From: an uncultured Poribacteria bacterium
Lineage (GTDB): Bacteria > Poribacteria > WGA-4E > WGA-3G
Reading direction: 5' to 3'
Length of the DNA stretch: 64,000 bases
Assembly (NCBI GenBank): GCA_958296135.2
Contig: CATQHZ020000001.1
Location: 1-64,000 of the forward strand
Below, in pieces: positions 1 through 41,813 of the stretch. Positions within the stretch are counted from its first letter, which is position 1; each line of letters begins with the position of its first letter. Position numbers and translations under genes: made by a program. The notes beneath the pieces were generated by a model. The model was not told where the DNA came from and ran no database searches. It saw only the letters and a program-made list of their open reading frames with translations.

Positions 1-149
1 TATCGGAACGGATTCTCGTGCCAATTGTCTGTATGGCATCATTCTAGCAAAAATCGGAATTTGTGTCAAGAAAAAAATGCCATCAAAACAAGGCTATGCC
101 ATTTTCAAAGTGTCGCGTCCCTTCATAGGTGGAGACTCGCCTGTTGCTG

Positions 150-1877
150 TTAATCTGATATCAGCGGCCCCTCGCCCACAGAACGCCCCGCCAAAAACAC
201 GCGCCACGTAATAGTATGTGGTGCTATTGCCGGTTCAAGGGCCAACGTATATCGATACATCCCGCCATCTTGGAGTGGCTGCATCGGCTGCGCGTCCCGA
301 TACAGCCGTGCATCCTGCATCAACGTCACCGTCGGGGCGAGGCCGACAAGCGGCTCACTCGGAATCGCGACGATGTCCCAATACCGCGGCAGCACCGGAT
401 TCGGCAGCACCGAAGAAACGAACGTCACCGCCGCAAAGCGCGTGGCACCGTAGTCATACGTTCTGACGATGTGCGGCTGGAGTCGCGGTGTTTCAGACTG
501 CAAACTGGGCACGAGCACCGCTTTCGTCACCGTAGGCGAAAGTGCCAATGAACCCACGCCTGACGCGGACAACGACACCTCCTGCACCGGGCTCAAAACG
601 TCGTGCTGATAGTCAATCAGATGTAGCCGCCAATCCTGTGCCGGTGTCTCACCAGAGAAACTGAGCGTCACGCCCGCAGCGGTTTGAGAAGCCTCCCATT
701 CAAAGACGAGATAGGCGGCAGCAAAATCCGGCAAGGTGTGAGACATCACCAGGGGCTGTTCGGGAGAAACACCTGTGCGGATACGATGCACCCGCGTCGG
801 CGAGAGTGTGAGGTTCACGTGCGCGTAATCGGAGAGATAGTTCGCAATCTTCCAGTCAGCGAACAACTCGGTCATCGTCACGTCGTATCCCTGTTCTTGC
901 AGTGCAGCGGCGATACCGTTCATGGAAGTGCCAGCGTGCTGCACAATGTGCCGCAGCGTACCCGTTCCCCCATAGCGTTCGTGCAAATAGAGCATCCAGA
1001 GAAACGCCGCGCCATAGTGCGGCAGGGATGTCCCTCCTGCCGCTGGCCAGGCCGTGAGAGAGACAGAAGAGTGCTTCTCAAAAGCAGCGATGTGCGCTCG
1101 CGAGGCGTAGCCACAAAGGAACGCCGCGTAGTCCGCGCAGCCCTCATCCACCCAGATCGCCTCACGGCTGTCGTGCCGCCAATGAATTAAATGTTGGAGC
1201 TCATGCGCGATGACGTTCTGCGCCTCTTCACTGTTAAGATTGAGCGGCAACGTATCAATGTAGAGCATATCCGCCACATTGCTGCGAATGGCAAGCCCGC
1301 GGAACCCCGGATGGCGGCGGACACCTCGCCCCTGGTCTGCCGAATTAAAAAAGCCTGCCGTGTAGTGTCCTGAGACATCAGCCGCATCCCGAATGTTAAG
1401 CAGCAGCAGAATCACGCGTCCATTCTCATCAACATCCGGCGGCACGCCGAATACCGCTGTCAATGTCGGATAGATACCCCGCGGGCCAGCCGGTGTCGCC
1501 TCGTCAAACGCGTGGATGAGCGTTTCCACCGTGCGAGGCGTGACGCGCCCTTCCCATGCCGCCGCCTCAACGTAAACATAACAGAACCTGCCGACACCGC
1601 GCAACACGGCGGAAACGGTATACTGTTGCATGCTGCGAAAGTCTGGCGCGAAGAAGGTGCGTTCCGTCCCGACAGGCAGGGCTGGCTGCACCTGCCCGGG
1701 CGCAGATGGAGCGTCTTCCCTTTGCAGGGGCCGCGCGCGACGCTCCGCCCCAGTCGCCGCGGTTTGCAACGGTGTTTTGAACGCCGGTGTGCCGCAGCGG
1801 AACGCAACACTTGGCTGTGGACACATCAGCAAGAGGAGCACGAAAAAAAGGGACACCCGAGAAAGAACAGTTTTCAT
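150..1877 (-). CDS. Secreted zinc metallopeptidase (M30/immune inhibitor A-like)
   Basis: Signal-like N-terminus MKTVLSRVSLFFVLLLL; HELQH zincin motif with downstream WVDEG. Start moved to ATG 1877 because the upstream ORF extension is repeat DNA. Confidence 0.75.
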   Translation of the reverse strand: MKTVLSRVSLFFVLLLLMCPQPSVAFRCGTPAFKTPLQTAATGAERRARPLQREDAPSAPGQVQPALPVGTERTFFAPDFRSMQQYTVSAVLRGVGRFCYVYVEAAAWEGRVTPRTVETLIHAFDEATPAGPRGIYPTLTAVFGVPPDVDENGRVILLLLNIRDAADVSGHYTAGFFNSADQGRGVRRHPGFRGLAIRSNVADMLYIDTLPLNLNSEEAQNVIAHELQHLIHWRHDSREAIWVDEGCADYAAFLCGYASRAHIAAFEKHSSVSLTAWPAAGGTSLPHYGAAFLWMLYLHERYGGTGTLRHIVQHAGTSMNGIAAALQEQGYDVTMTELFADWKIANYLSDYAHVNLTLSPTRVHRIRTGVSPEQPLVMSHTLPDFAAAYLVFEWEASQTAAGVTLSFSGETPAQDWRLHLIDYQHDVLSPVQEVSLSASGVGSLALSPTVTKAVLVPSLQSETPRLQPHIVRTYDYGATRFAAVTFVSSVLPNPVLPRYWDIVAIPSEPLVGLAPTVTLMQDARLYRDAQPMQPLQDGGMYRYTLALEPAIAPHTITWRVFLAGRSVGEGPLISD

Positions 1878-2067
1878 ATTTTTTGTCCTTGCTGCTGGCG
1901 AGCGTGTAGGCGTTCGGGGATACCGAACGCCGAAGATGTGCTGTTTGGCTTTCGCAAACAGCACTGCACGCTCGCCTGAGCCAAGCGTTCGATAACGGTG
2001 GTTTGTGTAGAGATGATTGACGTGCATCATCCGCATGCGCCGTTGTTGCAGGCTAGGTGCTTTCGCT
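1875..2067 (-). repeat. ~100-bp dispersed repeat, copy R1 (carries an 87-bp insert)
   Basis: Aligns by eye with 8015-8116 except for the insert at 1893-1979 and one replaced hairpin. Confidence 0.9.
1893..1979 (+). mobile_element. T-shaped miniature element, copy T1
   Basis: Outer stem, hairpin, GAAGAT linker, hairpin; absent from the homologous site in 8015-8116. Confidence 0.75.
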
Positions 2068-2266
2068 AAAGAAGAAAAAGCAAGAAAAAAGTGAAAAAAT
2101 GTAGTCCTCCGCGGTCGATGATAGATAACGTCAGCCTAAGTCGGCTGACGTTATTGCACCAAAAATGCATATCAAACTTCTGCTTCTGCCATTCTCCCCA
2201 AAAGTAGAGGCCGGTGCAGAAAGCGACGAGGAGTATCGCGCCGATGGTAATTTGTCTCAGGGACAT
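2066..2266 (-). pseudogene. Truncated paralog of the 2749-3567 gene (N-terminal anchor only)
   Basis: LYFWGEWQKQKFD resembles IYFYAEWQKAQFD; the frame then runs into a perfect hairpin (2125-2154) and non-coding-looking DNA. Confidence 0.55.
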
Positions 2267-2748
2267 GAGTTCTCCATTGCGCGCGCCACAAGCGCGCTGA
2301 GTAAAACGTTTGCTAATCTACTGTCTCATAAAACGCTTTTTTTGTCAAGTTTTTTAAGACAGTCGCTCGGGACTGTCCTAAAAAAAACTTTGCGTTCTCT
2401 CCTGATTCGGAGAGTTGTCCGGCGGCGTAGGCTGAACCTAACTGACACACTGTGTTCAGTTAACTCCTTCCGGATGTCGTTAATGCTTATGATGGAGAGA
2501 AGATGCGCGGGGCGCGGGCGACTTGGATGAGCGCGAGAAGTGCGCCGATGAGGATGCTGGTTAAGAAACGGTTCATTTTATGGAAGCATCGAGACCGGGA
2601 GGGCTCTCTTCCTATAAAAAACCCCGCTGTGGAAAACCACGAAGTAGACATGTTGATTTTAACACGCATTGATTTTTTCTGAAGAAAAGTACGCGTTAAA
2701 ATGTGTGTGATGGGCGGATAGAAATATCCACCCTGACAGATTGCGCGT

Positions 2749-3567
2749 CTACTTTTTCAGTTGGCGGATGGCCTCCTTCACTCGTCTGCTCCTGGGATCC
2801 TCCGCCAGTATCCGCTCGAGTTTTGGCAGGATGATGTGTGCCACGATGCCGTCTAAGTCTGACCGGTGCTGTGTGCCAACCTGCCTTAGGATTCTAGCAG
2901 CGTTCGCCACGCCTCTGGTATAATGTTCGTCCCCTTCTTTCAAATCCAGATAGGGGATGAGGTAGGGAACAGATGGGGGTCCCATGGCGACGAGTGCTTC
3001 GGTGAGAGGGCTGCCTGAGAAGGGGCTCTCAACCTGATAAGCGACGAGGATTTCAATGGAGCGGGGATCGCGGAGGGGACAGAGTGCCTCCATCAACATG
3101 ACGATTTCTTCGGTGTTGTCGTCAGGGCCCCCTTCGTAGCCAAAGCTCACCGGGGGTGGTGTCAATTGCGCGATGAGTGCTGGGGTTCGGGGATCTGCGG
3201 TGCCGCCCCAGGCGAAGGGATTTTCCATAATATAGTCAAGTTTGGCCCAGGCTTTGGCAACCGGGTCCTCGGCATCAAGTTCGGCGAGGTTTTCGGGTTT
3301 GCTTGCCTCGTGCGGGCTGCCGGTGCTGGGTGGTTTCCAGTCGTCGCTGGGTATGAGTTCGGTCTCGCCGGTGTCGTTATTGTGTGCATCGTCGGCGGGT
3401 TTCCAGTCACCGTCGGGTTTCCCGTGGCCGCCGGGTTGTTCGTCGGCGGCGGGTGGCACGGGGCGTGCTGCGTCGAATTGTGCTTTCTGCCATTCAGCAT
3501 AGAAGTAGATGGCGAGGCAGAGCGCGAGTAGGATGCAGAAGCTGCTGATGAGGGTTTTGGCGTTCAT
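2749..3567 (-). CDS. Membrane-anchored hypothetical protein with a HEAT-like C-terminal region
   Basis: AAGGAG RBS before ATG 3567; N-terminal TM helix; ALVAMGPPSVPYLIPYL HEAT-like segment. Confidence 0.7.
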   Translation of the reverse strand: MNAKTLISSFCILLALCLAIYFYAEWQKAQFDAARPVPPAADEQPGGHGKPDGDWKPADDAHNNDTGETELIPSDDWKPPSTGSPHEASKPENLAELDAEDPVAKAWAKLDYIMENPFAWGGTADPRTPALIAQLTPPPVSFGYEGGPDDNTEEIVMLMEALCPLRDPRSIEILVAYQVESPFSGSPLTEALVAMGPPSVPYLIPYLDLKEGDEHYTRGVANAARILRQVGTQHRSDLDGIVAHIILPKLERILAEDPRSRRVKEAIRQLKK

Positions 3568-3794
3568 GAGGGTTCTCCTTTGGAAACGTTTTATAGCAAT
3601 CAAGTATCGGACCTTTTGTCTCTCCTACAGGACTCCGCTTCATCTCGGGTGCGGGGAGATGAAGTGGTGTTGTTCGTTGAGCACTAACGTGATGTGCCGG
3701 TTGTCTTTTTCAAGGATAACCTGTTTGGGTGCAATCATAACCAAGCACCAGCCGTTTTGGGAAACATCATCGAGCGTGACGAAGTGAATCTGTT

Positions 3795-3864
3795 GCATGC
3801 GGTGCTACGGCGATGAGCGTCCCTGCCCAGACCCTCGTTATCGAACGCCTCGCGCCAAGACAAA
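3795..3864 (+). repeat. ~100-bp dispersed repeat, copy R2 (5'-truncated)
   Basis: gcatgcggtgctacggcgatgagcgt...gttatcgaacgcctcgcgccaagacaaa matches R3/R5 and abuts the TPR gene stop codon. Confidence 0.8.
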
Positions 3865-5508
3865 TTACTTCAAAGCCTCCAATTTCTCGCGGAGCTCCAC
3901 CGCGATATCCGAACCTTCCGGGGCCACTTGCACGGCGCGTTCCAACGTTTGCACCGCCTTCTCCTTCAACCCCTTTTCCAGATACGCATCGCCGAGGTGT
4001 CCCAGGATTTCCGGTGTCGCCGGCAGGTGCCGGTCTGCCAGTTCTAACAACTCAATCGCGTCCGCGACTTGTCCCTGCTTCAAATAGATGAAGCCTAAAC
4101 TATCAAGGTATGCGCCGGAGGTAGGCGAGACTTTGAGTGCGCGCTGGACGAGCGCGGCTGCCTCCTCTAAGTGAATGCCCTGCTCGGCGTAGAGGTACCC
4201 TAACGCATTAGATGCATCGGGGTGCCCCGGTGCCAACGTCAGCACCTTCCGGAAATAAGTTTCGGCCTGCTTGAGACTGCCCAACGTTTGATGCGCGCTG
4301 CCGCTGCCGTAAAGCGCGCCCACATGGTTCTCATCGGCGGCGAGAAGTTTGTCAAAAGTGTCCAACGCCTGTTGCGGCTGTTCAAATCGCAAATAGACTT
4401 GGCCGAGCGCATACCGCACCTCAGTCAGCCGTGCCTTAAGTTCCGCGCGTTCCGCACGATTCCGAGTCTGCCGCGTCTTTTCAAGCGTCAACCCCAGTGC
4501 CTTCGTCAGGTGGAACACCGCCGTATCCAAATCGTCCACCCATTGATAGGCGAGTCCGATGCCGAAATGCGCATCAAGTTCCGTTGCGGCCAACTCGCCG
4601 GAGACAGGCCCGTGCGCCGCTGCGTCGTTAATCGCCTCCAACACCGTGCCGAAAGCCGCCACCGCTCTCTCATAGTCCCCCGCTTGAACGTAAAGCAATC
4701 CCAAGTGATTCCGGACCCGCACATTTCCCGGCTGAATCGTAACGACACGCTGATAAGCCTGGAGTGCCTGCGGTGTCTGTCCTTCAGCTTCATACAACTC
4801 GGCCAGCCGTTCATGAAACCGCGCCTGAAACGGCTCGATGCGAGTGAGTGCCTTAAAAGCAGCGATGGCGAGTGCTGTCTCGCCGAATTCGCTAGCAATC
4901 TGGCCGAGGTACCACTGCCCATCAACGTGGTCTGCATCTAATTCAACCACGCGTTTTAAAACCGTGCCGAGTTCCGTCTGCATCGGGTTCGCCTGTCGTC
5001 TCTGAGTTGCGAACGTCCGTTGAATTAAGAGACGCGCGAGGAGCCAAGTGGCATGCACATTCTCTGGATTCAGCGCGAGTGCTTGTCGGCAATCGGCTTC
5101 GGCGCCGCGGACATCCTGCAACGCCTCAAAGCGGAGTGCGGCGCGCCGCGTATAGATGAGACTGGACGGTGGCCCGTCGGCGATGAGGGTATCGTAAGCC
5201 GTCCGGCTTTCGGAAACCAGGTTGCGTCCGACGGTTTGATGATAGACGGCCGACATGAAGCGAGCATACCGCTCAGCGGTGAGGCGCAGTGCCGCGCCGC
5301 CCGCTTCCGTTGCGATAGGCAGCTCTTGTAAGGGTGGATGAGTCGCGCGTGACTCATCGGCCCCCGCACTTCCGACGGAAACCATGATTAAAAAGACAAG
5401 GCCTATCATCACCCCAGCTGTCGCTGTTTTTAACTGCACAAGTTGTGCAGATGGCGTTCGCTGGATTGCTTCGATGATATGATGCTTATGCGTCAAGAAA
5501 TATGTCAT
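3865..5508 (-). CDS. Tetratricopeptide-repeat protein (start uncertain; may be ~5409)
   Basis: Multiple TPR motifs (NALGYLYAEQG, YLDSLGFIYLKQG, HLGDAYLEKG); hydrophobic N-terminal segment. Confidence 0.85.
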   Translation of the reverse strand: MTYFLTHKHHIIEAIQRTPSAQLVQLKTATAGVMIGLVFLIMVSVGSAGADESRATHPPLQELPIATEAGGAALRLTAERYARFMSAVYHQTVGRNLVSESRTAYDTLIADGPPSSLIYTRRAALRFEALQDVRGAEADCRQALALNPENVHATWLLARLLIQRTFATQRRQANPMQTELGTVLKRVVELDADHVDGQWYLGQIASEFGETALAIAAFKALTRIEPFQARFHERLAELYEAEGQTPQALQAYQRVVTIQPGNVRVRNHLGLLYVQAGDYERAVAAFGTVLEAINDAAAHGPVSGELAATELDAHFGIGLAYQWVDDLDTAVFHLTKALGLTLEKTRQTRNRAERAELKARLTEVRYALGQVYLRFEQPQQALDTFDKLLAADENHVGALYGSGSAHQTLGSLKQAETYFRKVLTLAPGHPDASNALGYLYAEQGIHLEEAAALVQRALKVSPTSGAYLDSLGFIYLKQGQVADAIELLELADRHLPATPEILGHLGDAYLEKGLKEKAVQTLERAVQVAPEGSDIAVELREKLEALK

Positions 5509-8017
5509 GCTCTGCCTCCAATTCAATTGTGCCGACATCGACAACGGTTTCGTCGCCCTGGAGTGTCATCACACGGACGCCGGTGGTAGTTCTCCCGATG
5601 GGGCGAATGTCGCTGACAGCCATGCGGGTGACATACCCGCTGGAACTAATCAACACTAATTCATTTGTATCCGAGACGCGTTTGGCGGTGACAACTGGGC
5701 CGTTCCGCTCGGACTGCTTGATGGCGATAATGCCTTTGCCGCCGCGTCTTTGCGGCCGGTATTCAGAGAGATAGGTGCGTTTGCCATAGCCGTTTTCCGC
5801 GACAATGAGCAGCGTCTCCTCCTTTTTTTTCGGCTCGGCTTCAGTCTCATCTGTCTCTGTCTCTGGCGCGGGCGGTTGCGTGCGTGCAGTGACTACCATT
5901 GAGACAACAGCGTCGTCAGGTTTCAGGCCGATGCCACGCACACCGCGGGTATTCCGTCCTGTGGCTCTCACCTGTGCCTCGTCGAACCGGATGGCGGTGC
6001 AGTTCTGGGTGACGAGGAGCACCTCGGCGGTGCCATCGGTGAGTTGCGCGCCGATAAGCCGGTCTCCTTCATCAAGGCTCACAGCAATGATACCGGTAAC
6101 GAGGGGGTTCTGAAAACGGGCCAAGTTCGTCTTTTTGACAATGCCATTCGCCGTTGCCATAAAGACGAAAGCGTTCTCGTTAAATTCACGCACAGGGACA
6201 AAAGCGGTAATGTTTTCGTCCGGCGCGAGGCGGAGGAGGTTAACTATGGCGCGCCCTGCGGCGGTGCGCCGTCCCTCTGGAATCTCAAACACTTTCAGCC
6301 AATAGCACTTGCCCTTATCGGTGAAGAAGAGGATGTACTGATGCGCGGAGGCGATGAAGAGATGCTCTAAAAAATCGCCATCTTTCGTGACACCGCCCTT
6401 GATGCCGACACCGCCGCGTTTCTGCTTCCGGTACGTATCAATCGGCAAGCGTTTGAGATACCCGGCATGCGAGAGCGTCACCACCATCTCGTCGTCTGCA
6501 ACCAGGTCTTCGATGTCAAAGGCTTGGACGGCGGCGGTAATTTGGGTGCGGCGTTCATCGCCATAGGTGGTTTTGAGTTGCTCCAACTCGGTGCGGATGA
6601 TGTCGGTGATGAGAGTGTCACTGCCGAGAATGGCCCGCCGTTCCGCAATCTCCTCCAATCTATCAGTGTGCTCGTCATGGATGCGCCGGCGTTCGAGCCC
6701 GGTGAGTTGCCGTAGCGTCATCGTCAAGATTTCGCGCGCCTGCTGCTGACTTAACTGGTAGGTTTCTCGCAGCTGCTGCAGTGCGGCATCCGGCGATGCG
6801 GCTGTCTGGACGCGCTCAATGATATCTTCCAAGTTTTGCAAGGCTGTGAGATACCCTTCCAAGATATGCGCCCGGCGTTCGGCTTGCGCCAACTCAAATT
6901 GTGTGCGCCGCCGGATGACATCGCGGCGATGTTCCAAGTAGTGCTGCAGTATCTGGGCCAAGGTTAACACTTTCGGCAGCCCATCGACGAGACACAACAA
7001 ACTCGCGCTGAAGTTGGTTTGCATCTGCGTATGCTTATAGAGCTGGTTGAGAATGACTTGCGAAATCTCGCCCCGTTTCAGTTCAATGACGATGCGGATA
7101 TCGCTATCGGATTCGTCTCGGATATCCGAAATGCCGGTAATCGTTTTGTTGACAACGAGGTGATACATCCGTTCCAACAGATGGTTCTTCTTCACCTGAT
7201 ACGGAATCTCGGTGATGACGATTTGTTCTTTGGGCGTTCTCCGCGCACCTGTCGCGGCGCGCTCGATGACGGCTTTGGCACGGAGCGTCATGCTGCCCCT
7301 GCCGGTGGTATACATCTTTTTGATGCCATCGGTGCCGACGATGCTGCCGGCGGTGGGAAAGTCAGGACCGGCGATGTATGCCATCAGCGTTGCGGCATCG
7401 GCACCCGGGTCCTCCAATTTACAGAGCAGCGCGTCCACGACTTCACGCAAGTTGTGCGGCGGAATCCGCGTCAGATAGCCTACGCCTATCCCGGTGGTGC
7501 CGTTGAGGAGCAGATTGGGCAACAGGCCGGGCAGCACCGTCGGTTCTTCCAACGACTCTTTGTAGTTGGGCTGGAAGTCGACAACCTGCTTTTGGATGTC
7601 GGTGAGCATCTCGCCGGCGATGTTAGCGAGACGGCATTCGGTGTAACGCATCGCACCGGGCGGATCATCGTCGATACTGCCGAAGTTCCCCTGCCCATCA
7701 ATGAGCGGATACCGCGTGCTGAAATCCTGCGCCATGCCGACAAGTGTATTGTAAATGGGCCCGTCTCCGTGCGGGTGGAAGTTTTTCATCACCTCGCCTA
7801 CGACAGCGGCGCACTTGTCATAGGGCCGCTCGGCGGTGAGGTTGATTTGTCCCATGGCGTAGATAATGCGCCGGGTGCTCGGTTTGAGTCCATCGCGCAC
7901 ATCCGGTATCGCGCGATTCGTGTTCACACTCATCGCGTAGGTGAGATACGATGTTTTGAGCTCGTTTTCGATGTTGCGTTCTTGTATGTTTTCATGTACC
8001 GCCATGCGTTCGTTCAT
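5486..8017 (-). CDS. gyrA: DNA gyrase subunit A
   Basis: RAIPDVRDGLKP, FHPHGD, catalytic AMRYTE, GyrA box QKRGGVG, pinwheel repeats. Confidence 0.98.
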   Translation of the reverse strand: MNERMAVHENIQERNIENELKTSYLTYAMSVNTNRAIPDVRDGLKPSTRRIIYAMGQINLTAERPYDKCAAVVGEVMKNFHPHGDGPIYNTLVGMAQDFSTRYPLIDGQGNFGSIDDDPPGAMRYTECRLANIAGEMLTDIQKQVVDFQPNYKESLEEPTVLPGLLPNLLLNGTTGIGVGYLTRIPPHNLREVVDALLCKLEDPGADAATLMAYIAGPDFPTAGSIVGTDGIKKMYTTGRGSMTLRAKAVIERAATGARRTPKEQIVITEIPYQVKKNHLLERMYHLVVNKTITGISDIRDESDSDIRIVIELKRGEISQVILNQLYKHTQMQTNFSASLLCLVDGLPKVLTLAQILQHYLEHRRDVIRRRTQFELAQAERRAHILEGYLTALQNLEDIIERVQTAASPDAALQQLRETYQLSQQQAREILTMTLRQLTGLERRRIHDEHTDRLEEIAERRAILGSDTLITDIIRTELEQLKTTYGDERRTQITAAVQAFDIEDLVADDEMVVTLSHAGYLKRLPIDTYRKQKRGGVGIKGGVTKDGDFLEHLFIASAHQYILFFTDKGKCYWLKVFEIPEGRRTAAGRAIVNLLRLAPDENITAFVPVREFNENAFVFMATANGIVKKTNLARFQNPLVTGIIAVSLDEGDRLIGAQLTDGTAEVLLVTQNCTAIRFDEAQVRATGRNTRGVRGIGLKPDDAVVSMVVTARTQPPAPETETDETEAEPKKKEETLLIVAENGYGKRTYLSEYRPQRRGGKGIIAIKQSERNGPVVTAKRVSDTNELVLISSSGYVTRMAVSDIRPIGRTTTGVRVMTLQGDETVVDVGTIELEAEHDIFLDA

Positions 8018-8116
8018 ATTTTTTGTCCTTGCGCCAAGCGTTCGATAACGGTGTTTGTGTAGAGACGCTCATCGCCGTAGCGTCGCATGCGCCGTTGTTG
8101 CATGCTAGGTGCTTTC
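8015..8116 (-). repeat. ~100-bp dispersed repeat, copy R3 (no insert)
   Basis: Matches R1, R4 and R5; ends in AAGGACAAAAAATATG, which is the first in-frame gyrA ATG. Confidence 0.9.
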
Positions 8117-8129
8117 CGGCAGTGTCTCC

Positions 8130-11103
<2,974 letters not shown>

Positions 11104-11661
11104 CGCTTTGCGTGACAAACAACCGCTGCAGCGCATTCTTCAAAGCTTCATCCGTGATGCCCGCGAGAGCCAACTCCATTGCCGTACGCGTCGCCGGCGA
11201 CACTGCCGGTGACACTGACGCGGTTGATGTTCTCACCCCTTTCGCCGATGAAAGGCCCTGTTCCTCCTGTCCACCGTCCGGCGCGCGAGAGCCTCTCCCT
11301 CCCGGGCGACATTCTAGCCGTAAGTCCCTCAGGACCGGACGCTCCAACCGCGCATTCAACCCAGCCACAATCTGCACCTTGTGGAACGACACCTCTGTCT
11401 GATACGCCGGATGCGTTGTCCAGACGGTGAGGATGCCATCCGAAAGCGAGGCGGGATGCGCATGGTTCGCAATAGGTTCGCCGACAACCTCGCGCCAAAG
11501 GGACAAAACTTGCTGCTCCAGCATCTTCGCCGCAAAGTGCCGCTCGCCGATGAGCGTTTTCAGTAGCGGCGAGATATGTTCGGTACCGCTCGGCGGCACG
11601 CTTCCAGTCTTCCGCATAGGACACCCCTCTACTGTCGATACTTAACTCCAGAAACCAGAAA

Positions 11662-11766
11662 AGCGAAACAACATAGCATGCAACAACGGCGCATGCGGTG
11701 CTACGGCGACAAGCCTCTCTGCACAAACCACTATTAGCGAACGCTCGCGCCAGGACAAAAAACATG
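11662..11766 (+). repeat. ~100-bp dispersed repeat, copy R5 (no insert)
   Basis: Matches R4; contains the recF stop codon. Confidence 0.9.
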
Positions 11767-13017
11767 CCCATTCTCAACCATGAAGACACAAGGGGCATCC
11801 AGATGGCGCAAGAGCCGCTCCTGCTGAGTCGCCGTGATGAACGTTTGCGCGCAGACCTGCTCAAGCACATCTAACAAGAACGCCGCGCGCTTGTCATCTA
11901 ATTCAGACACCACATCATCTAACAGCACCAGCGGCGCGCTACCCGTCCGCTCGCGAATCAGCTCAACTTCCGCCAGCTTGAGTGCAAGCGCAAGAGTGCG
12001 CTGCTGTCCCTGTGAACCGTAGGCGCGCGCACCCTCGCGCACCCGAAAGCCTTCACGTTCCGTCTCCAAGTCCAGCTGGAAATCATCCCGATGCAGACCG
12101 GCAGTCGTCGTGCCGCGCCGCCTATCCGTTTCGCGAGCCGCTCGCAAAGTGTCGCGAAATAGCTCCTGAACCTCAGCCGCTTTCCCTTCCCCGGTCGAGC
12201 GTGGCGGCTGTGCCGAATACGAAACAGTCTCCGAAGATGTTGATATCGGTAAACCGATGTCAACCGCACGCCCAACCGCGCCCAGCCTAGAGCCTGTCTC
12301 TCGCTGTGGATGCCATGCAGGACGATACGTCAACCTCAGTTGTTCGCGCCCGCCAGTGAGTGCCTTATGCTTTTGTAGCGCGTACTGTCTCAAATGCTGG
12401 AGTCCCTGAATCCGTTTCAAAATTACTGCCGTGCCGGCCTCAACCAGCAGTTCGTCCCACACGTCGAGTTGCGCCGTCCCGTGCCCACGGGCACGCCCGA
12501 ACGCTTTGAGCAATGCATTCCGCTGCTTCAGCACGGAACGATACTGCTGTAAATCCGCAAGATAACGGCTGTCTACCTGTGACAAGAGCGCATCGAGAAA
12601 GCGCCGGCGTTCACCCGGCGCGCCTTTGACTAACGCCAGCGACTCCGGTGAGAAACAGACAACGTTGCACTGCCCAAGCCACCCCGAACGCTTTGGCTCA
12701 AGCACGCCGTTTTTTTTAAGCGTGAACGGCCCCGTCGCCACTTTCGTCGCCTCCAAGCACAGCGCATCCGCGGCACCCGGATCCTCGGTGACATCGAGGC
12801 ACCCCTTCAAATAAAAGCCCGCCGCGTTATATTGAATTAACTCGGATACCGCGTAGGCGCGGTGCGATGCAGCAGTGCAGAGGAAATAGATAGCCTCTAG
12901 CAGACTCGTTTTTCCTTGTGCATTCCCGCCAAGAATTAAGTTAACACGCTGGGGAAAACCGATGTCACACTGAGTATAATTCCGAAAGTTGCGTAAGACG
13001 AGGTGAGTTAACTTCAT
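11734..13017 (-). CDS. recF: DNA replication/repair protein RecF
   Basis: NFRNY, GGNAQGKTSLLEAI, GSQGQQR, LLDDVVSELD. Confidence 0.97.
   Translation of the reverse strand: MKLTHLVLRNFRNYTQCDIGFPQRVNLILGGNAQGKTSLLEAIYFLCTAASHRAYAVSELIQYNAAGFYLKGCLDVTEDPGAADALCLEATKVATGPFTLKKNGVLEPKRSGWLGQCNVVCFSPESLALVKGAPGERRRFLDALLSQVDSRYLADLQQYRSVLKQRNALLKAFGRARGHGTAQLDVWDELLVEAGTAVILKRIQGLQHLRQYALQKHKALTGGREQLRLTYRPAWHPQRETGSRLGAVGRAVDIGLPISTSSETVSYSAQPPRSTGEGKAAEVQELFRDTLRAARETDRRRGTTTAGLHRDDFQLDLETEREGFRVREGARAYGSQGQQRTLALALKLAEVELIRERTGSAPLVLLDDVVSELDDKRAAFLLDVLEQVCAQTFITATQQERLLRHLDAPCVFMVENGHVFCPGASVR
12192..12278 (+). mobile_element. Degenerate T-shaped element T3, in frame inside recF
   Basis: Imperfect outer stem, decayed hairpin with AATA loop, GAAGAT, and hairpin gttgatatcggt-aa-accgatgtcaac; coincides with an atypical RecF segment. 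Confidence 0.6.
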
Positions 13018-13059
13018 TTTTCCACGTTACGATGCGAGAAGATTGTGGTGCGTTTTCTC

Positions 13060-13320
13060 GGAGTTATGCACATTTCTACTGTTAATACTAAGTACGATTA
13101 ATATATAAATTGTACTTAGTAGTAGTAGTAGGGGATGTGCATAAGTGCATAACTCGCTTAAACCCCTGATACACTCGGTAGGAAGGCTGTTGATAACCTG
13201 TGCATAACTTTTGGAGTTATGCACAGGTTATCAACATACGTCTGAAAAAAAGAGTTATGCACAGGTTATGCACAGGTTATGCACAACGTGTTAACAGAGT
13301 TATGCACAGGTTATGCACAG
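13060..13320. other. oriC: Replication origin oriC
   Basis: Nine TTATGCACA and two TTATCAACA boxes; AT-rich tract 13077-13116; five TAG trios (13117-13131) next to tandem DnaA boxes; directly downstream of dnaA. Confidence 0.92.
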
Positions 13321-13383
13321 GTAATTGACATTCAAAAAAGCCCTTTGGGCGGCAGCCCTTCCGCCGCGCAGGAAGGATAAACC

Positions 13384-14739
13384 TTACCGAAGTTGGACGC
13401 GCAGCACCTCAATGATTTGTTTCAGTTCTGTCTCTGTCTGGAGTGCCTTCTCCATCTGCCGACAAGCGTTCATCACGGTGGTATGGTTGCCTCGCCGAAA
13501 CGCCTCGGCGATGCTGGTGAGTGATAGCGGTGTCAATTCGCGACACAGATACATCGCCGTTTGGCGCGCCAGGACGATGGATTTGGTGCGCTTCGGCGAA
13601 ATCAAATCGGTGAGGGTGATGCCAAAGTATTCCGCCACCACTTTTTGAATCCCCTCGGCGGTGAGGGTTTTCTGCTGCGGGAAGAGTGGTGCGGCGACGA
13701 CTACATCGTTCAACACCTGCCGCGCGAAGGCGAGGCTCACCTCCTCTTTCATAATCGTCGCCTGAGCAACAAGCCGAATCAGCGTGCCTTCCAATTCGCG
13801 GATGTTCGTGGTGACAACCTCGGCGACGTAACTCAGCACGTCATCGTCAATGTTGTCTAACCCCTGGTCTTGGCATTTCTGGAGGAGAATGGCGACGCGC
13901 ATCTCATATTGCGGCCGGTCTATCTCCGCCACCATCCCCCATCCGAAGCGCGATTTGAGGCGTTCTTCAAGCGTCTCTAGCGTGTCCGGCGGCCGGTCAC
14001 TGCTCATAACAATCTGGTTGGAGTTCATGTGCAGCTCGTTGAAGGTGTTAAAGAACTCCTCTTGTGTACCCTCTTTCCGTTGTAAGAACTGAATATCATC
14101 GATGAGGAGCATATCGACAGTGCGGTATTTAGTGCGGAAGCCCTGTGCAGCAGTGCGGTTGACAATGGACTCGACGTATTCGTTCATGAACGTCTCGGAG
14201 GTGACATACAGCACCTTCTTCTCCGGGCGGCGGTGGGAGAAGCGATTGCCGATGGCGTGGAGCAGGTGCGTCTTGCCGAGGCCGACACCGCCGTAGATGA
14301 AGAGCGGATTATATTCGCCCCCGGGGTTCTCGGAGACAGCAAGAGCCGTGGCGTGACAGACGCGGTTGCTGGAGCCAACGACGAACCGGTCGAAGACATA
14401 GTTGGGGTTCAACCCTGTTTCGCCGTGTGGGAGTTGCACGGCAGGCTCGGTTTCGGGGTGTTCCGGCGCAACAGCGGCGGCAGCGGAAACCTCGGTAACT
14501 GTCAAGGCGAGGGACACCGCGGCGGTGCCAAAGCGGGCGGCTAACGCACGCTCGATATCGCCGCGAAACCGCTCCTCAATCCGAGCCTGGGCGAACGCGG
14601 AAGGCACGGCGAGTGTCAAGGTATCCGCCGTGAGGGAGAGAGGTGTCGCTTGCCGCAGATAGACATCCTGCCGAGCTGTCTCGTCCAAAGCTGCAAGTAT
14701 TTCTAACCAGAGTTCATCAAGGTTTTGCCGCATGAGCAT
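13384..14739 (-). CDS. dnaA: Chromosomal replication initiator DnaA
   Basis: YNPLFIYGGVGLGKTHL, LLIDDIQF, QEEFFNTFN, NIRELEG, HTTV. Confidence 0.98.
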   Translation of the reverse strand: MLMRQNLDELWLEILAALDETARQDVYLRQATPLSLTADTLTLAVPSAFAQARIEERFRGDIERALAARFGTAAVSLALTVTEVSAAAAVAPEHPETEPAVQLPHGETGLNPNYVFDRFVVGSSNRVCHATALAVSENPGGEYNPLFIYGGVGLGKTHLLHAIGNRFSHRRPEKKVLYVTSETFMNEYVESIVNRTAAQGFRTKYRTVDMLLIDDIQFLQRKEGTQEEFFNTFNELHMNSNQIVMSSDRPPDTLETLEERLKSRFGWGMVAEIDRPQYEMRVAILLQKCQDQGLDNIDDDVLSYVAEVVTTNIRELEGTLIRLVAQATIMKEEVSLAFARQVLNDVVVAAPLFPQQKTLTAEGIQKVVAEYFGITLTDLISPKRTKSIVLARQTAMYLCRELTPLSLTSIAEAFRRGNHTTVMNACRQMEKALQTETELKQIIEVLRVQLR

Positions 14740-14797
14740 TTATCCTAAGTGCTGAAGATAACAACGAAGCTGAGCTGCTAATTATGCATGACGTTTA

Positions 14798-14826
14798 ATT
14801 ATATCATTTTTTTCACAAAATAGCAA
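14798..14826 (-). promoter_or_regulatory. Sigma70-type promoter for dnaA
   Basis: TTGCTA-17-TATAAT on the minus strand. Confidence 0.65.
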
Positions 14827-14923
14827 CTTAAATTGATGAAAATTTTCCACTTCTCTATTTTTCATGAAAACGGCTATTTTGTCAAGCAGATAAATTGTCG
14901 GAACAGGACAATGCATAAAAAAT

Positions 14924-14952
14924 TTGACAAATAGCAAAAAATACGGTATAAT
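14924..14952 (+). promoter_or_regulatory. Sigma70-type promoter for rpmH
   Basis: TTGACA-17-TATAAT. Confidence 0.8.
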
Positions 14953-15004
14953 TTCTTACAGAATTTATCGAATGAACACTCACATCGAGAAAGGAATGTG
15001 ACTC

Positions 15005-15139
15005 ATGAAGCGAACCTATCAACCGCATCGGCGGAAACGGAAAAACAAACTCGGCTTCCGCAAACGCATGTCCACCCGCTATGGCCGGAAAACTATCGCT
15101 CGCCGCCGCGCGAAAGGCCGCAAAGTGCTCAGTGCCTAG
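15005..15139 (+). CDS. rpmH: 50S ribosomal protein L34 (not in the ORF track)
   Basis: Hand translation [44 protein letters not shown]; divergent from dnaA. Confidence 0.97.
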
Positions 15140-15175
15140 CGAAGCCAGCACCCCACAGAAGAGGAGGAAGACTCA

Positions 15176-16591
15176 ATGTCCTGCCGCCCCAACATCGTCT
15201 ATTTACTAGTAGACCAGGTTCGTGCCAGTGCCTTGCCTGTCTATGGCGAAACGCAAATCGAAACGCCGCACATAGATAGGCTCGCCGAACAGGGCACCGT
15301 CTTCTCAAACGCCATTGCCACCGCGCCGGTCTGCACGCCTTATCGTTCCATGCTGCTCACCGGCCGCCACCCACAGACGACTGGGCATCTCATCAATTTC
15401 GTCAAAACCCGACACGATGAGATAGGCCTCGGCGACGTATTCAGCCGTAACGGCTACCGCACGGCGTGGATTGGCAAGTGGCACCTCCACACCGGTTCGT
15501 TCCCCGAAATCGGCGGACGGGATTACGTGCCCGAGGGGCGCGACCGGCTCGGATTCCAGCACTGGCGCGGCTACAATTTCCATACCGATTACTATAACGG
15601 CACGGTGAACCTGGATGGCTGGCGGAACGAACGATGGGAGGGTTACGAGACAGACGCGCTCAACCGATACGCATGCCAGTTTATGGACAGCGTTGACGAC
15701 ACCACCCCCTTTTGCTTATTTATCTCGCCGCATCAGGCGCACTTCACGCCGTATGACTTTGCACCGCAGGCGTTCTACGACAGACTGCCCGATGAACTCC
15801 ACCTTCCTGCGAACGTTCCGGATGCACTTCGGGAGGAATCGGCGCAACTCTATCGGCATTACCTCGCCATGACGTTGGCTATCGATGACATGCTCGGCGA
15901 ACTCATGGCGTATCTGGCGCGGATAGGGCGCGTGGAGAATACGTTGCTCGTTTTCGGGGCAGACCACGGCACACAGGGCGGCGCGCAGGGCCTCCCTTTC
16001 TGGGCGAAGAAGCAGCCTTATGAGGAGTCTATCAAGGTGCCGCTTATCATGCGGTTGCCCGGCGTGTTTGAGGGCGGCAGGACATGTGAGACGCTTACCT
16101 CTCCCGTAGATTTGTTTCCATCGCTGTGCGGCTTGTGCGGCATTCAGCCACCGCGCACCGTCGAAGGGTACGATGTGTCTGCATCGTGGCGCAGGGAACC
16201 GGGGGCACTTGAGCAGGATGCTGTCTTGACAATGAATTTCGGCGCAACCTACGATTATCTCGTGGATGGCGACGAATGGCGCGGCGTGCGCACGAAAACG
16301 CACAGTTATGCACGGTGGCTTGATGGAAAACGGGTGCTGTATGATGTCGCCGCAGATCCGCTGCAACTGACGAATCTGATAGGACACCCTGAAGCACAGC
16401 CGTTAGCCGACGAACTGGAAGAGACGCTCGCCCAATTGATGGCAGCCCGAAACGACACGTTGCAACCGGCAACGCAGTACACCGATTGGTTCGACGCGCA
16501 ACGGCGCATCGTGCGGAATGCACACGGCCCCCTCGCAAACCCGGAGGATGAACCCAACTGGTCGCGGTTGAAAAACAACACAATAGGATAA
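15176..16591 (+). CDS. Cys-type sulfatase
   Basis: RPNIV..LVDQ, CTPYR (CxPxR), LLTGR, GKWHL, DHG; GAGGAGG RBS. Confidence 0.93.
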   Translation: MSCRPNIVYLLVDQVRASALPVYGETQIETPHIDRLAEQGTVFSNAIATAPVCTPYRSMLLTGRHPQTTGHLINFVKTRHDEIGLGDVFSRNGYRTAWIGKWHLHTGSFPEIGGRDYVPEGRDRLGFQHWRGYNFHTDYYNGTVNLDGWRNERWEGYETDALNRYACQFMDSVDDTTPFCLFISPHQAHFTPYDFAPQAFYDRLPDELHLPANVPDALREESAQLYRHYLAMTLAIDDMLGELMAYLARIGRVENTLLVFGADHGTQGGAQGLPFWAKKQPYEESIKVPLIMRLPGVFEGGRTCETLTSPVDLFPSLCGLCGIQPPRTVEGYDVSASWRREPGALEQDAVLTMNFGATYDYLVDGDEWRGVRTKTHSYARWLDGKRVLYDVAADPLQLTNLIGHPEAQPLADELEETLAQLMAARNDTLQPATQYTDWFDAQRRIVRNAHGPLANPEDEPNWSRLKNNTIG

Positions 16592-16693
16592 ACGCAGTCT
16601 CTGCACCGTAGGCGCGCGTCGGAAGCGCGCCATTATCGCCCCATCTTGACCCAAAGTGCCTATGGTGACGCCTTAACGCTGATTGAACACCTT

Positions 16694-16783
16694 TGCCGAT
16701 TTTGGCGTAGGCAGGTTTGCGAAAGCCAAACCTGCCGAAGATGTGTCATTCGGCTTTGCGAATGACACTGCGCCAAAATCGGA
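16694..16783 (+). mobile_element. T-shaped miniature element, copy T4
   Basis: tg-ccgattttggcgta / ggcaggtttg-cgaaagc-caaacctgcc / GAAGAT / gtgtcattcg-gctttg-cgaatgacac / tgcgccaaaatcgg-a. Confidence 0.75.
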
Positions 16784-16796
16784 GTGACAAACGAAA

Positions 16797-18026
16797 ATGC
16801 CGAGAACGTTTAAGCTACCTCATTTTTATCAGAGTCCCGTGATTTCGGTTGTCAAACAGGCGCGTCGGCATCGCGATGCGCGCAAGCGCGACTTGTCGCC
16901 GTCTGTGCTAGACTTCGGACCGGTGCGGTTTAAAATCGCCCGGCACTTCGGATTCTGTTACGGCGTGGAGAATGCAGTGGAGATAGCCTATCAGGCACTC
17001 GAAGAGAATCCCGACAAACGGATTTTCCTGCTCTCCGAAATCATCCATAACCCGCGCGTCAACGAGAATTTGCGGCACCGCGGCGTGCAATTCTTGTCCG
17101 ATACCGAGGGCAAACCGTTACTCCCCTTTGATGTCTTAACGCCGGCAGATGTCGTCATCGTCCCTGCGTTTGGGACAACGCTGGAAGTGGAGGCGGCACT
17201 CCACGCGCGCGGCGTGAAACTCTCCGCTTACAACACTACCTGTCCGTTTGTCGAGAAGGTTTGGAAGCGCAGCCAAGAAATCGGCAGGCAGGACTACACC
17301 GTCGTTGTCCACGGCAAGCGGTATCATGAGGAGACGCGCGCCACCTTTTCGCATGCACAAGCCGAGGCACCGGTTGTCGTCGTGCGCAATTTGGCAGAGG
17401 CGGCGATGCTCGCAAAGGTGATTCGTGGGGAGGCCGACGAACGCTTTTTCTTTCAAAACTTCGCCGACCGGTATTCGCTGGGCTTCCATCCGGATGTCCA
17501 TCTGAAGCGCATCGGCGTTGTGAATCAGACGACGATGCTCGCCACGGAGACACAGGCCATCGCCGATTTGCTACGCGATGCCATTATGGCGCGATACGGT
17601 GAAGAGAACCTCACGGAACACTTTGCGGATACCAAGGACACCCTCTGCTACGCCACGAAAGAGAATCAGGACGCAACGCTCGCGCTGATTGCAGAAGGCG
17701 GCGATGTGGCTGTGGTTGTCGGCGGCTATAATTCTTCCAATACGAGTCATCTTGTCGAACTCTGCACCGAGCGGCTCCCTACTTATTTTATCCGAGATGC
17801 GTCGGAGTTGCTGAGTCCGAGGCGCATCCGGCATCTGGTGCTGGAGACGAAGCAGGTACAGGTGACAGAGGCGTGGTTGCCGTCGGGTGAGCCGATAGAC
17901 GTTGTGCTGACAGCGGGTGCCTCTTGTCCGGATGTGCTGTTGGATGAGGTGCTGCGGAAGATTGTGGGTTGGTTTCCGAACGCGCGCGCGATTGAAACGG
18001 TGCTTGCGCCTTATCAGGAAAGGTGA
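16797..18026 (+). CDS. ispH: 4-hydroxy-3-methylbut-2-enyl diphosphate reductase
   Basis: FGFCYGV, IIHNP, TTCPFV, NQTT, TLCYAT.ENQ, SSNT, TAGASCP. Confidence 0.95.
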   Translation: MPRTFKLPHFYQSPVISVVKQARRHRDARKRDLSPSVLDFGPVRFKIARHFGFCYGVENAVEIAYQALEENPDKRIFLLSEIIHNPRVNENLRHRGVQFLSDTEGKPLLPFDVLTPADVVIVPAFGTTLEVEAALHARGVKLSAYNTTCPFVEKVWKRSQEIGRQDYTVVVHGKRYHEETRATFSHAQAEAPVVVVRNLAEAAMLAKVIRGEADERFFFQNFADRYSLGFHPDVHLKRIGVVNQTTMLATETQAIADLLRDAIMARYGEENLTEHFADTKDTLCYATKENQDATLALIAEGGDVAVVVGGYNSSNTSHLVELCTERLPTYFIRDASELLSPRRIRHLVLETKQVQVTEAWLPSGEPIDVVLTAGASCPDVLLDEVLRKIVGWFPNARAIETVLAPYQER

Positions 18027-18107
18027 TGCAGGGCGAGGGAAACCCTCGGCAGTTAGTGACTGCCGGGCCCCCGCGCTACAGTGATGGGCGTGTGAGAGAT
18101 AAAAAAC

Positions 18108-18941
18108 ATGAAAAACACTGTCATCCTTTGGTTATGCCTCTCGCTCTGCATACCGCCACCACTCGGTGGCGATACCGCTACACCCGCGCCTACCGAAATG
18201 GTGCTTATTCCTGCAAGGGAGTTCCTGATGGGTAGCAACGACACGGATGCAGACGCGGACGAGAAACCGGCGCATGCTGTCTACGTGGATGCCTTTGAAA
18301 TCGATGTGTTTGAGGTAACAAATGCGCAGTTCAAGGCGTTTGTCGATGCGAACCCGCAGTGGCAGAAAGGCAACATCCCGGAGGCGTTCCATCGGGGCTC
18401 CTATCTGAGCCACTGGGATGGGAATACCTACCCTACCGGCAGGGGAGATCATCCTGTTGTTTATGTCAGTTGGTATGCGGCGATGGCGTATGCGCAGTGG
18501 GTGGGCAAGCGGCTCCCGACAGAGGCGGAATGGGAGAAGGCTGCGCGCGGCGGGCTCACCGCGAAAAAATACCCGTGGGGCGATACAATTGATTCAAGCA
18601 ACGCGAACTACGACAAAGGACGCGCCGGCACGGCCCCCATTGGCGAGTATCCGCCGAACGGATACGGCCTGTATGATATGGCGGGCAACGTTTCGGAGTG
18701 GTGCCTTGATGCCTACGATGCCGAATTCTATCACGTTTCACCGAGACAGAATCCGCTCGCTGGTGAGGAACTCGCGGCGGTTCTCACGCATTTCGCCGAG
18801 GCGAAGACTCCTCGTGTGTTGCGAGGAGGCGGCTGGCTCAATGTCGCGACGCGCCTCCGCGTTGCAGTTCGCGACCGGCCGTTGCCCACTTACGCCCTGA
18901 ATTTCATTGGGTTTCGCTGTGTAAGAGGGGTTACGCCTTGA
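18108..18941 (+). CDS. Secreted FGE-sulfatase (SUMF1-like) domain protein, probably non-catalytic
   Basis: EVTNAQF, HPVVYVSW, RLPTEAEWEKAARGG, NGYGLYDMAGNVSEW, GFRC; no catalytic Cys pair. Confidence 0.9.
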   Translation: MKNTVILWLCLSLCIPPPLGGDTATPAPTEMVLIPAREFLMGSNDTDADADEKPAHAVYVDAFEIDVFEVTNAQFKAFVDANPQWQKGNIPEAFHRGSYLSHWDGNTYPTGRGDHPVVYVSWYAAMAYAQWVGKRLPTEAEWEKAARGGLTAKKYPWGDTIDSSNANYDKGRAGTAPIGEYPPNGYGLYDMAGNVSEWCLDAYDAEFYHVSPRQNPLAGEELAAVLTHFAEAKTPRVLRGGGWLNVATRLRVAVRDRPLPTYALNFIGFRCVRGVTP

Positions 18942-19007
18942 GCACTACCGTGCTTTCAAGAACGTTTTCAACAGGCTTGCGCGAGAAAGGGAGCTGTTAG
19001 GTTCGCT

Positions 19008-19138
19008 CGGCCCCTTTGAACCGTAGCGCGAGGGCCGTTACGCCGAAACTTTGTCATCTCTGCAGCCTCGCTGCAGAGATGTCCACTGTCCCTCGCGAAG
19101 CCCCGCGCAAGGAAAAAACGGCCCCCTTCACGGTCGAA
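19008..19138 (+). repeat. Composite GTAG-REP-like element with a nested hairpin
   Basis: Near-identical reverse-complement copy at ~25937-26068; partial copies in hisC and at ~55485. Confidence 0.85.
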
Positions 19139-19231
19139 CGATTTTGCGTGCAAGGCGTAATTGTTTCTCAGGGTGGTAAATCCAAATTGATGTCCCTTCG
19201 GGGGATATCACAACCGAGAGGCATTCTGACG

Positions 19232-20014: not shown

Positions 20015-20029
20015 TCATGAAATATGCGA

Positions 20030-20130
20030 GGCCCCTTCCTACCGTAGCGCGAGGGCCCGGCGATCGCGAATCGCCGAGGGTTCCCCTCGCGATCTCTCGA
20101 CCCACACAAAACGGCCCCTTTCACCGTACC
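20030..20130 (+). repeat. GTAG-REP-like element
   Basis: Matches 10804-10855 and 22610-22690. Confidence 0.85.
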
Positions 20131-22538: not shown

Positions 22539-22833
22539 TTTTGTATTTCCTCGCTAGTTAGCGGTGGTTTGGCTGCGTTTGTGCTAATAACTCCCGCTGA
22601 TGAGAGAGAGGCCCCTTCGTACCGTAGCGCGAGGTCTTGTGCCTCGCGATCTCTCGACCCACACAAAACGGCCCCTTTCACCGTAGCGCGTCGACTTAAC
22701 GTTGTCAAGTCTTGCATGTTTGAGTTCTTCCTGCATGGAGCCCGGCAGTCACTAACTGCCGAGGGTTGGCAGGAGGTAGGCGCGATTTGAAACCGCGACG
22801 CTTATAGGGTTGGCAAGGAAACCTGTTCATTGC

Positions 22834-25716: not shown

Positions 25717-25809
25717 TTTATGTCCTTATTGCGAGATTTGCATTAATATACCATATCAACAACAAAAAAAGCAAGTTTTAATAATTGAAGTAACGCCCGC
25801 GAAAGAGAG

Positions 25810-37501: not shown

Positions 37502-37553
37502 CAAAAAACGCGATAGGCGCGCTTTCAAAGCACGCCTACCGGGAGAAGTTCGG

Positions 37554-41772: not shown

Positions 41773-41813
41773 CGCGGGCTCAGTGTGCCCGCGTCATGCG
41801 TTAGGGGTTGGCG

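Follow-up and report, generated by a model that had tools for sequence, protein, structure and literature searches.

A T-shaped doublet of inverted, REP-like hairpins with exact filled and empty insertion sites in the origin region of a Poribacteria chromosome

The window analysed here is a stretch of 64,000 nucleotides from an uncultured Poribacteria bacterium (contig CATQHZ020000001.1 of assembly GCA_958296135.2, positions 1–64,000 of the forward strand), and it contains the chromosomal origin region. Its RecF protein is closest to proteins of Candidatus Poribacteria, the best non-self match being 64–68% identical. Pfam matches identify gyrA (5486–8017), gyrB (ending at 8130), a DciA gene (11072–11617), recF (11734–13017) and dnaA (13384–14739) on the minus strand, and a sulfatase gene (15176–16591) and ispH/lytB (16797–18026) on the plus strand. 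Dispersed among these genes is a small repeat, which we term the T element, with three intact copies and one probable decayed copy: T1 (1893–1979, plus strand, 87 nt), T2 (10957–11045, minus strand, 89 nt), T4 (16694–16783, plus strand, 90 nt) and the probable copy T3 (12192–12278, plus strand, 87 nt, equal to 29 codons). All three intact copies are found by their fold, by a scan for T shapes and by covariance models, and T1 and T2 also by alignment of the repeat into which they are inserted; T3 is found by covariance models and by a hairpin next to the core motif. A preliminary description of this DNA had given the same four sets of coordinates and the same layout. T1 is located 13 nt upstream of the ATG (1877–1879) of a minus-strand gene whose product has a signal-peptide-like N-terminus, T2 between the DciA gene and gyrB, and T4 between the sulfatase gene and ispH/lytB.

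In T1, T2 and T4, an outer stem bears two hairpins, which are joined by a GAAGAY spacer. Read from the 5' end, T1 consists of TGC, an arm, a GTAG tag (1906–1909), hairpin 1 (1909–1931), the spacer GAAGAT (1932–1937), hairpin 2 (1938–1964), CTGC, the second arm and a terminal TGA. The corresponding parts of T2 are, in plus-strand coordinates, hairpin 2 at 10972–10998, spacer at 10999–11004 and hairpin 1 at 11005–11030, and those of T4 are hairpin 1 at 16710–16736, spacer at 16737–16742 and hairpin 2 at 16743–16768. The hairpins are perfect stems of 9–11 bp with loops of 4–7 nt. The outer stems comprise 12–13 pairs, slightly fewer than the 13–14 bp proposed previously. Single-stranded DNA (ssDNA) of the three copies forms the T shape on both strands, equally well, with folding z-scores of −7.4 to −9.8, and none of 200 shuffled sequences folds as well. 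A scan of the window for two hairpins of at least 7 bp enclosed by an outer stem of at least 8 bp yields exactly three places, namely T1, T2 and T4, all of which share the GAAGAY spacer; ten dinucleotide-shuffled controls contain one such place in total.

The T element is a two-fold pseudo-symmetric pair of inverted hairpins resembling repetitive extragenic palindromes (REPs), a feature that the preliminary description missed. The top strand reads flanking C, then TGC, arm, NYAG and hairpin 1; the bottom strand reads flanking C, then TC, arm, NYAG and the reverse complement of hairpin 2. Each strand therefore carries a module of the form 5' T-(G)C-arm-NYAG-hairpin, in which the arm measures 10–12 nt. 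The tags are GTAG and GCAG in T1 and T4 (GTAG at the foot of hairpin 1 in both, as noted before) and CTAG (top strand) and TTAG (bottom strand) in T2. The AG of the tag is invariant at all six hairpin feet, and the full GYAG is present at four of them. At all six strand ends of the intact copies, the end of the NYAG tag lies 16–17 nt from the junction with the flanking DNA, and at five of the six this junction, as located in silico, falls between a flanking C and the T of the element (C|T). The 17-nt tip of hairpin 2 in T1 is the exact reverse complement of the tip of hairpin 1 in T4, which confirms an earlier observation and makes sense if hairpin 1 of the top strand and hairpin 2 of the bottom strand are interchangeable modules. 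Each half of the element is a short palindrome with a GTAG-type tetranucleotide at its 5' foot, as in a REP, and the two halves are inverted REPs within one folded unit preserved by compensatory changes, as in the REP doublets known as REPINs. The two hairpins do not complement one another, so that the strand is unable to form one long hairpin and adopts the T-shaped or 'clover' fold instead.

Two of the intact copies interrupt another repeat of about 105 bp, of which five copies lie within 10 kb. Repeat copy R1 (minus strand, 1980–2064, continuing at 1873–1892) is split by T1 at ...CCTTGC|GCCAAG... (plus strand), and R3 (plus strand, 10914–11099) holds T2 at ...CTACGGC|GACAAG.... R2 (minus strand, 8015–8116), the 3' end of which reaches the gyrA start codon at 8015–8017, R4 (plus strand, 11662–11766), which overlaps the 3' end of recF, and the partial copy R5 (plus strand, 3795–3864) are empty at both sites. 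When the repeat copies are aligned, T1 and T2 stand out as clean blocks at two different positions, each of which is empty in four of the five copies. No target duplication is present at the T1 or T2 site when filled and empty repeat copies are compared, and since the bases flanking each junction differ, the boundaries cannot be shifted. The inserted unit is thus the whole T, including the outer stem, and it was inserted in two events. In the orientation of the element, the targets read CCTTGC|GCCAAG for T1 and GCTTGTC|GCCGTA for T2, and both insertions are at CpG. Clean insertion at two positions of the repeat had been proposed before, and our alignment bears this out and adds the empty partial copy R5; the proposal of a non-autonomous element that inserts without target duplication is likewise supported.

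We also considered the repeat as a structured target and discarded the idea, since its single strands fold no better than shuffled sequences (z between 0.3 and −0.8); small hairpins at the insertion points are only suggestive. The 3' end of the repeat (GGACAAAAAAYATG) supplies the start-codon region in two copies, those at gyrA and at the gene starting at 1879, and a word resembling it precedes an ATG at about 33213, whereas two other copies are antisense to their neighbours. The repeat could be a mobile leader or promoter cassette.

The preliminary description had called the T element conserved in structure, not in sequence, and the first half of this statement holds. The alignment of the three intact copies, fitted to the model, contains 31 pairs or 93 pair cells, of which 98.9% are standard pairs and only two are G-U. 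Both partners have changed with pairing kept in 20 of the 31 pairs, and one-sided changes are absent. None of 500 column shuffles reaches these values, and pairing falls to 32–42% when the 3' partners are slid by one to three columns. It should be noted that these figures come from three sequences in an alignment fitted to the structure and that the complementarity of inverted DNA repeats can persist without selection on a fold. The second half of the statement is overstated. The GAAGAY spacer, the termini (5' TGC ... GA 3') and the words adjacent to the hairpins are conserved, as is much of the hairpins themselves, and T1 and T2 share 84% identity over their central 55 nt. Variation within the element is greatest in the arms. 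Their pairing is maintained, as proposed, but they are not unrelated: three of 12 outer-stem pairs are invariant, and the arm of T3 (GGTCGAGCGTG) is intermediate between those of T1 (GGCGAGCGTG) and T2 (GGTCGACGGCT).

A covariance model built from T1 alone scores T1 at 117 bits and recovers T2 (62.7 bits) and T4 (61.1 bits) strongly and T3 weakly (21.4 bits, E 0.006) in the window, where the best match other than a T element reaches 14.4 bits. With a model of the three intact copies, T3 scores 24.4 bits (E 6e-4), and the next match in the window scores 14.2; a sequence-only hidden Markov model finds T3 with an E-value of 0.015. As a control we scored 319,219 bases of unrelated genomes, taken from 100 of 114 loci chosen for a match to the core motif (see below). 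The highest scores in this DNA are 25.3 bits for the T1-only model and 23.4 bits for the three-copy model. Since the former exceeds and the latter comes close to the corresponding score of T3, we regard T3 only as a probable, decayed copy of the T element. Independent support for this assignment is provided by the association of the core motif with hairpins. There are seven CGAAGAYG sites in the window, and four of them, those of T1 to T4, have a hairpin of at least 10 bp at an offset of 7, against a background of 231 such hairpin starts in 128,000 positions; no flanking hairpins are found at the other three sites (11522, 21839 and 55919).

T3 is read antisense and in frame as residues ∼247–275 of RecF. 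Compared with solved RecF structures, the protein has ∼39 extra residues between positions 211 and 284. Of 120 relatives listed, 17 were aligned with the query, and in all 17 of these poribacterial proteins the linker at residues ∼235–285 is hypervariable, with 15–70 amino acids and in some cases simple repeats such as DIDTDIDVD. An in-frame insertion of T3 is therefore plausible rather than demonstrated. A clean T3-empty recF allele, which we looked for among the relatives, is unprovable from proteins, as all aligned relatives carry the variable linker. Small insertions may have landed repeatedly in this linker.

None of the four T copies is more than ∼12 kb from the putative origin, and the remaining 47 kb (17000–64000) contain no copy. 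For REPs or REPINs, tens to hundreds of copies per genome would be expected; in the 64 kb analysed, the three intact copies and the probable decayed one fall between 1.9 and 16.8 kb. The clustering may reflect the local 105-bp target repeats or, with four copies, chance. The region between recF and dnaA (13170–13330) contains at least eight DnaA-box-like words (TTATGCACA and its complement), some of them in 11-bp tandem spacing, and a perfect 22-bp inverted repeat, and the genes on both sides point away from it; it is probably oriC.

The window also contains a classical REP family, in which GTAG is followed by a hairpin of the form CGCGAGGG-loop-CCCTCGCG. We found at least 13 copies, at 10719–10860, 19003–19055, 20024–20100, 20900–20952, 22604–22697, 25800–25980, 28420–28452, 29935–29960, 39092–39124, 47712–47744, 50814–50879, 52348–52373, 55413–55478 and 62150–62180, and we count their presence in favour of relating the T element to REPs. 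Some of them are tandem or composite with a second conserved block (CCGGCGATCGCGAATCGCCGAGGGTTCCCCTCGCG).

The tags and junctions of the T element can be compared with what is reported for RAYTs, the REP-associated tyrosine transposases, and for REPs. TnpA-REP/RAYT cuts ssDNA at C|T, either 5' or 3' of the REP, and strand transfer requires a C as the attacking 3' base, which becomes joined to the T (PMC8266576). In the proposed scheme, A3 and G4 of the GTAG tag determine which CT is chosen (PMC8266576), and the central C|T is indispensable for TnpA-REP (PMC3333891). A REP is a palindrome whose 5' foot carries a tag of the GTAG type, with GYAG variants accepted; dimers of type HH, with the tags outside, are the commonest, and heterodimers fold separately (PMC3733652). 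Replication and repair genes often contain intragenic REP dimers, which encode 20–30 amino acids (PMC3733652); T3 inside recF offers a parallel. The REPIN doublet has been proposed as the mobile unit, recognised by a RAYT dimer, with the less stable 'clover' as the active form (PMC3116915, Fig. S11 legend).

The T element belongs beside REP doublets and REPINs as a variant and is not a category of its own. Judged from sequence, the GTAG-type tags and the C|T junctions suggest the action of a RAYT/TnpA-REP-type HUH enzyme on folded ssDNA, which is the class of enzyme proposed previously. We lean towards regarding the T element as a non-autonomous, REPIN-like REP doublet in the clover fold that is moved by a RAYT-type HUH enzyme of the Y1 family. 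This reading would involve the following enzyme, single-stranded intermediate and sequence of steps. A dimeric Y1 enzyme, encoded elsewhere in the genome, would bind both hairpins; the AG of each tag would guide a cut at C|T 16–17 nt upstream; and the 5' T of the element would be joined to the 3' C of the target, resulting in an insertion at CpG without target duplication. Either both strands would be processed, for example at the base of an extruded cruciform, or separate strand transfers to 3'-C ends would take place.

Several observations weigh against this assignment. The left junction of T4 is T|T, the nearest C|T being 2 nt upstream (16691|16692), and the tags of T2 (CTAG and TTAG) are not of the GYAG type. 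On any single strand, C|T is found only at the left junction, with A|G at the right one. 'Peel and paste' on one strand with C|T at both ends therefore cannot give the boundaries, and a two-strand or other route has to be assumed. Classical REPINs keep their flanking 16-mers, whereas in the T element the arms beside the tags vary and spacer, tags and termini are conserved. The sites called empty here belong to paralogous copies of the repeat within a single genome and are no alleles, and they document two events only. Furthermore, no Y1/HUH or other transposase family is represented among the 130 open reading frames (ORFs) of at least 100 amino acids in the window, so that none of these is the RAYT or HUH gene flanked by T elements that one might look for; RAYT genes being usually single-copy (PMC8266576), this result carries little weight in either direction. 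Finally, when genome contigs were searched with a degenerate core pattern (CGAAGAYGTKNNNNTYGGN{4,6}CRAWNNNMAC) and the matches checked for the hairpin layout of the T element, none of the 114 matches listed, out of at least 114 loci, was a T element. The pattern proved too permissive, and, with flanks read by eye, its matches look like conserved coding words. Searches with blastn in distant mode returned no match for T1 and T4 in plasmids or for T2 in phages, and in the literature, searched as text, in which a drawn example could be missed, we found no described T-shaped or poribacterial repeat. Class 3 Y1 enzymes, the genes of which have atypical structures with a CnGA foot on their flanks (PMC6006769), were taken up as a lead only: T elements end in CTGA, CCGA and CGGA, but these endings do not stand at the 5' foot of a hairpin.

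A more specific version of the REPIN-like reading is doubtful. It regards the T element as a REPIN lineage locked in the clover fold, whose natural filled and empty sites would reveal RAYT-type integration, in distinction to the one-strand peel-and-paste of IS608. If this rather tentative idea applied, the C|T junctions on opposite strands at CpG might imply a symmetric two-strand or cruciform event or, alternatively, two successive strand transfers to 3'-C ends at a replication fork. Just as speculatively, the variable arms might co-vary in such a way that the two cleavage sites stay adjacent.

Among the alternatives, a minimal derivative of an IS200/IS605 element (a palindrome-associated transposable element, PATE) fares best, although we consider it unlikely. 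Here, hairpins 1 and 2 would be the left and right ends on one strand, recognised by a TnpA(IS200) dimer, and the element would move as a circular single strand and enter the target 3' of a short word. The lack of target duplication, the presence of two hairpins on one strand and the similar left flanks (CCTTGC| for T1, GCTTGTC| for T2 and CCTT| for T4) agree with such an origin, and in IS200/IS605 elements insertion likewise occurs without direct repeats, guides 5' of the hairpins setting the cleavage sites (PMC3333891, PMC8266576). The same flanks also show the difficulty, because CCTTGC, CTTGTC and CACCTT are similar but not identical and do not amount to the fixed target word of 4–5 nt. 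IS200/IS605 ends are not inverted repeats (PMC3333891), whereas the T element is pseudo-symmetric with complementary arms and has a C|T junction and an AG tag at equal distance on both strands. By the cross-complementarity rule of PMC8266576, cleavage at A|T, A|C or G|T is predicted from the word 5' of hairpin 2 (AGAT or AGAC), and not at A|G, where the right junction is in fact found. There is no tnpA gene in the window.

It is very improbable that the T element is a structured RNA (a small RNA, a ribozyme, or a cis-regulatory or terminator-like element) repeated by coincidence, an alternative that the preliminary description had left standing. Many REPs have been argued to act as RNA (PMC3733652), and the strong fold with its three-way junction, the covariation and the sense orientation of T2 and T4 between co-directional genes would suit an RNA. 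However, taking all copies, two (T2 and T4) are in sense and two (T1 and T3) in antisense orientation to local transcription, and T3 sits in a coding region. Rfam families give no match at the gathering score in the whole window and none on the T copies at E-values up to 5 in positions 1–20000, and a hairpin followed by a run of T is absent. G-U pairs, as described above, make up just two of 93 pair cells and pairs do not vary on one side only; the rarity of G-U together with the equal folding of both strands is more in keeping with a DNA-level element than with an RNA. Polymorphic insertion with exact boundaries is also a property of DNA.

A folded-DNA substrate of another recombinase is equally improbable. 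In one version, a tyrosine recombinase would act on a forked hairpin, in the manner of attC or Xer/CTX; in the other, a DDE transposase would mobilise a miniature inverted-repeat transposable element (MITE) with the outer stem as terminal inverted repeat. It is as folded single strands that attC sites and the attachment site of the CTX phage are recognised, and structure conserved above sequence and insertion without duplication would agree with this reading, but a MITE should have its terminal repeats as the best-conserved part and a target duplication, whereas the arms of the T element are its most variable part and neither filled site has a duplication, no conserved R/L box pair, cassette array or integrase was seen nearby on reading the sequence, and both models leave the tag and C|T regularities unexplained.

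Further repeats lie in the vicinity of the T elements and elsewhere in the window. The DciA–gyrB spacer of ∼450 bp consists almost entirely of repeats, namely REP units, the repeat copy R3 and T2. The longest gyrB ORF (937 amino acids) runs upstream over two REP-like units (10622–10943); because the conserved GyrB N-terminus begins there, the start is probably the Met encoded at 10620–10622. 'Double-foot' REP-like palindromes (GTAGGCGCGC..GCGCGCCTAC), which we likewise count in favour of the relation to REPs, form a second family and are located at 16607–16635, 37513–37543, 38342–38371, 39770–39797 and 54946–54980, one of them ∼60 nt upstream of T4. A different structured element, unrelated to the T element by either covariance model, is present at 55042–55123, where 54 nt containing an inner palindrome are enclosed by a 14-bp inverted repeat (AATCCCCGGCAAAC / GTTTGCCGGGGTTT). 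Coding tandem repeats with periods of 18 and 33–36 nt (58378–58809 and 59732–60082) are present in the gene for a cohesin/type IX secretion system (T9SS)-tail protein (57891–60743), and a minus-strand ORF of 2266 amino acids without Pfam match (26198–32998) contains Gly-Tyr-rich repeats of 12–15 nt (30312–32343). Local duplications of 200–270 bp with 92–98% identity, 365–453 bp apart, are found at 41811–42628 and 56019–56773.

The spread of REPs and REPINs is still described as unresolved, and exact filled and empty sites could allow it to be tested directly. The value of the T element lies in its clean junctions; the family combines C|T boundaries on both strands, a fixed distance between tag and cut, and a fold that is unable to collapse into a long hairpin. 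It would extend REP doublets to a Poribacteria-like lineage and provides one probable copy that is tolerated in frame inside recF. Should the link to the enzyme fail, the T element would be a small structured repeat with its mobilisation unexplained.

Among known systems, the inverted terminal repeat (ITR) of adeno-associated virus (AAV), to which the T element had been compared, shares its topology of a long stem bearing two short hairpins, and the likeness ends there. The AAV ITR is processed by an HUH enzyme, but it is the end of a linear ssDNA viral genome, ∼125–145 nt in length, and not an interspersed chromosomal insertion, and a relation in sequence is not expected. The ends of IS200/IS605 elements resemble the T element in hairpins recognised as ssDNA, guide words at the hairpin feet and no target duplication; they are strand-asymmetric and without inverted ends, however, whereas the T element is pseudo-symmetric.

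REPs and bacterial interspersed mosaic elements (BIMEs) of E. coli, together with TnpA-REP, can be compared in their biochemistry (PMC3333891, PMC8266576). As located in silico, five of the six junctions of the T element match the C|T site used in vitro, the C on the flanking side corresponds to the required 3' C, and the AG of the tags sits at the position proposed for the guide (PMC8266576). A bulge in the stem is essential for E. coli REPs, whereas the hairpins of the T element are perfect and more like those of 'group 3' REPs, and BIMEs form tandem arrays with variable linkers, unlike T elements (PMC3333891, PMC8266576).

In the GTAG REP dimers of type HH (PMC3733652), as in the T element, the tag lies directly 5' of a perfect stem (6–13 bp in those families), and the tags are outside; some partners in those families are only 1–5 bp apart. 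By this naming the T element is an 'HH' heterodimer. The T element differs from them in having a complementary arm of 12–13 bp outside each tag as part of the inserted unit, in its loops of 4–7 nt, compared with the 2–3 nt common in GTAG REP families, and in the T2 tags CTAG and TTAG, which are outside the variants listed there.

REPINs themselves (PMC3116915) are similar in that inverted REP-like palindromes form a non-autonomous unit of ∼90 nt with compensatory changes. The recognition by a Y1 dimer and the 'clover' with each REP self-folded as the active form, both proposed for REPINs, correspond to what we propose for the T element. Two differences concern the fold: the hairpins of the T element differ from each other and thus make it a heterodimer, and its clover, rather than the long hairpin, is the stable form. 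The spacer measures 6 nt, compared with 71 bp between the invariant 16-mers of the GI doublet of P. fluorescens (PMC3116915). The host phylum differs too, being Poribacteria-like as judged from RecF relatives, and the T element is known without a linked RAYT.

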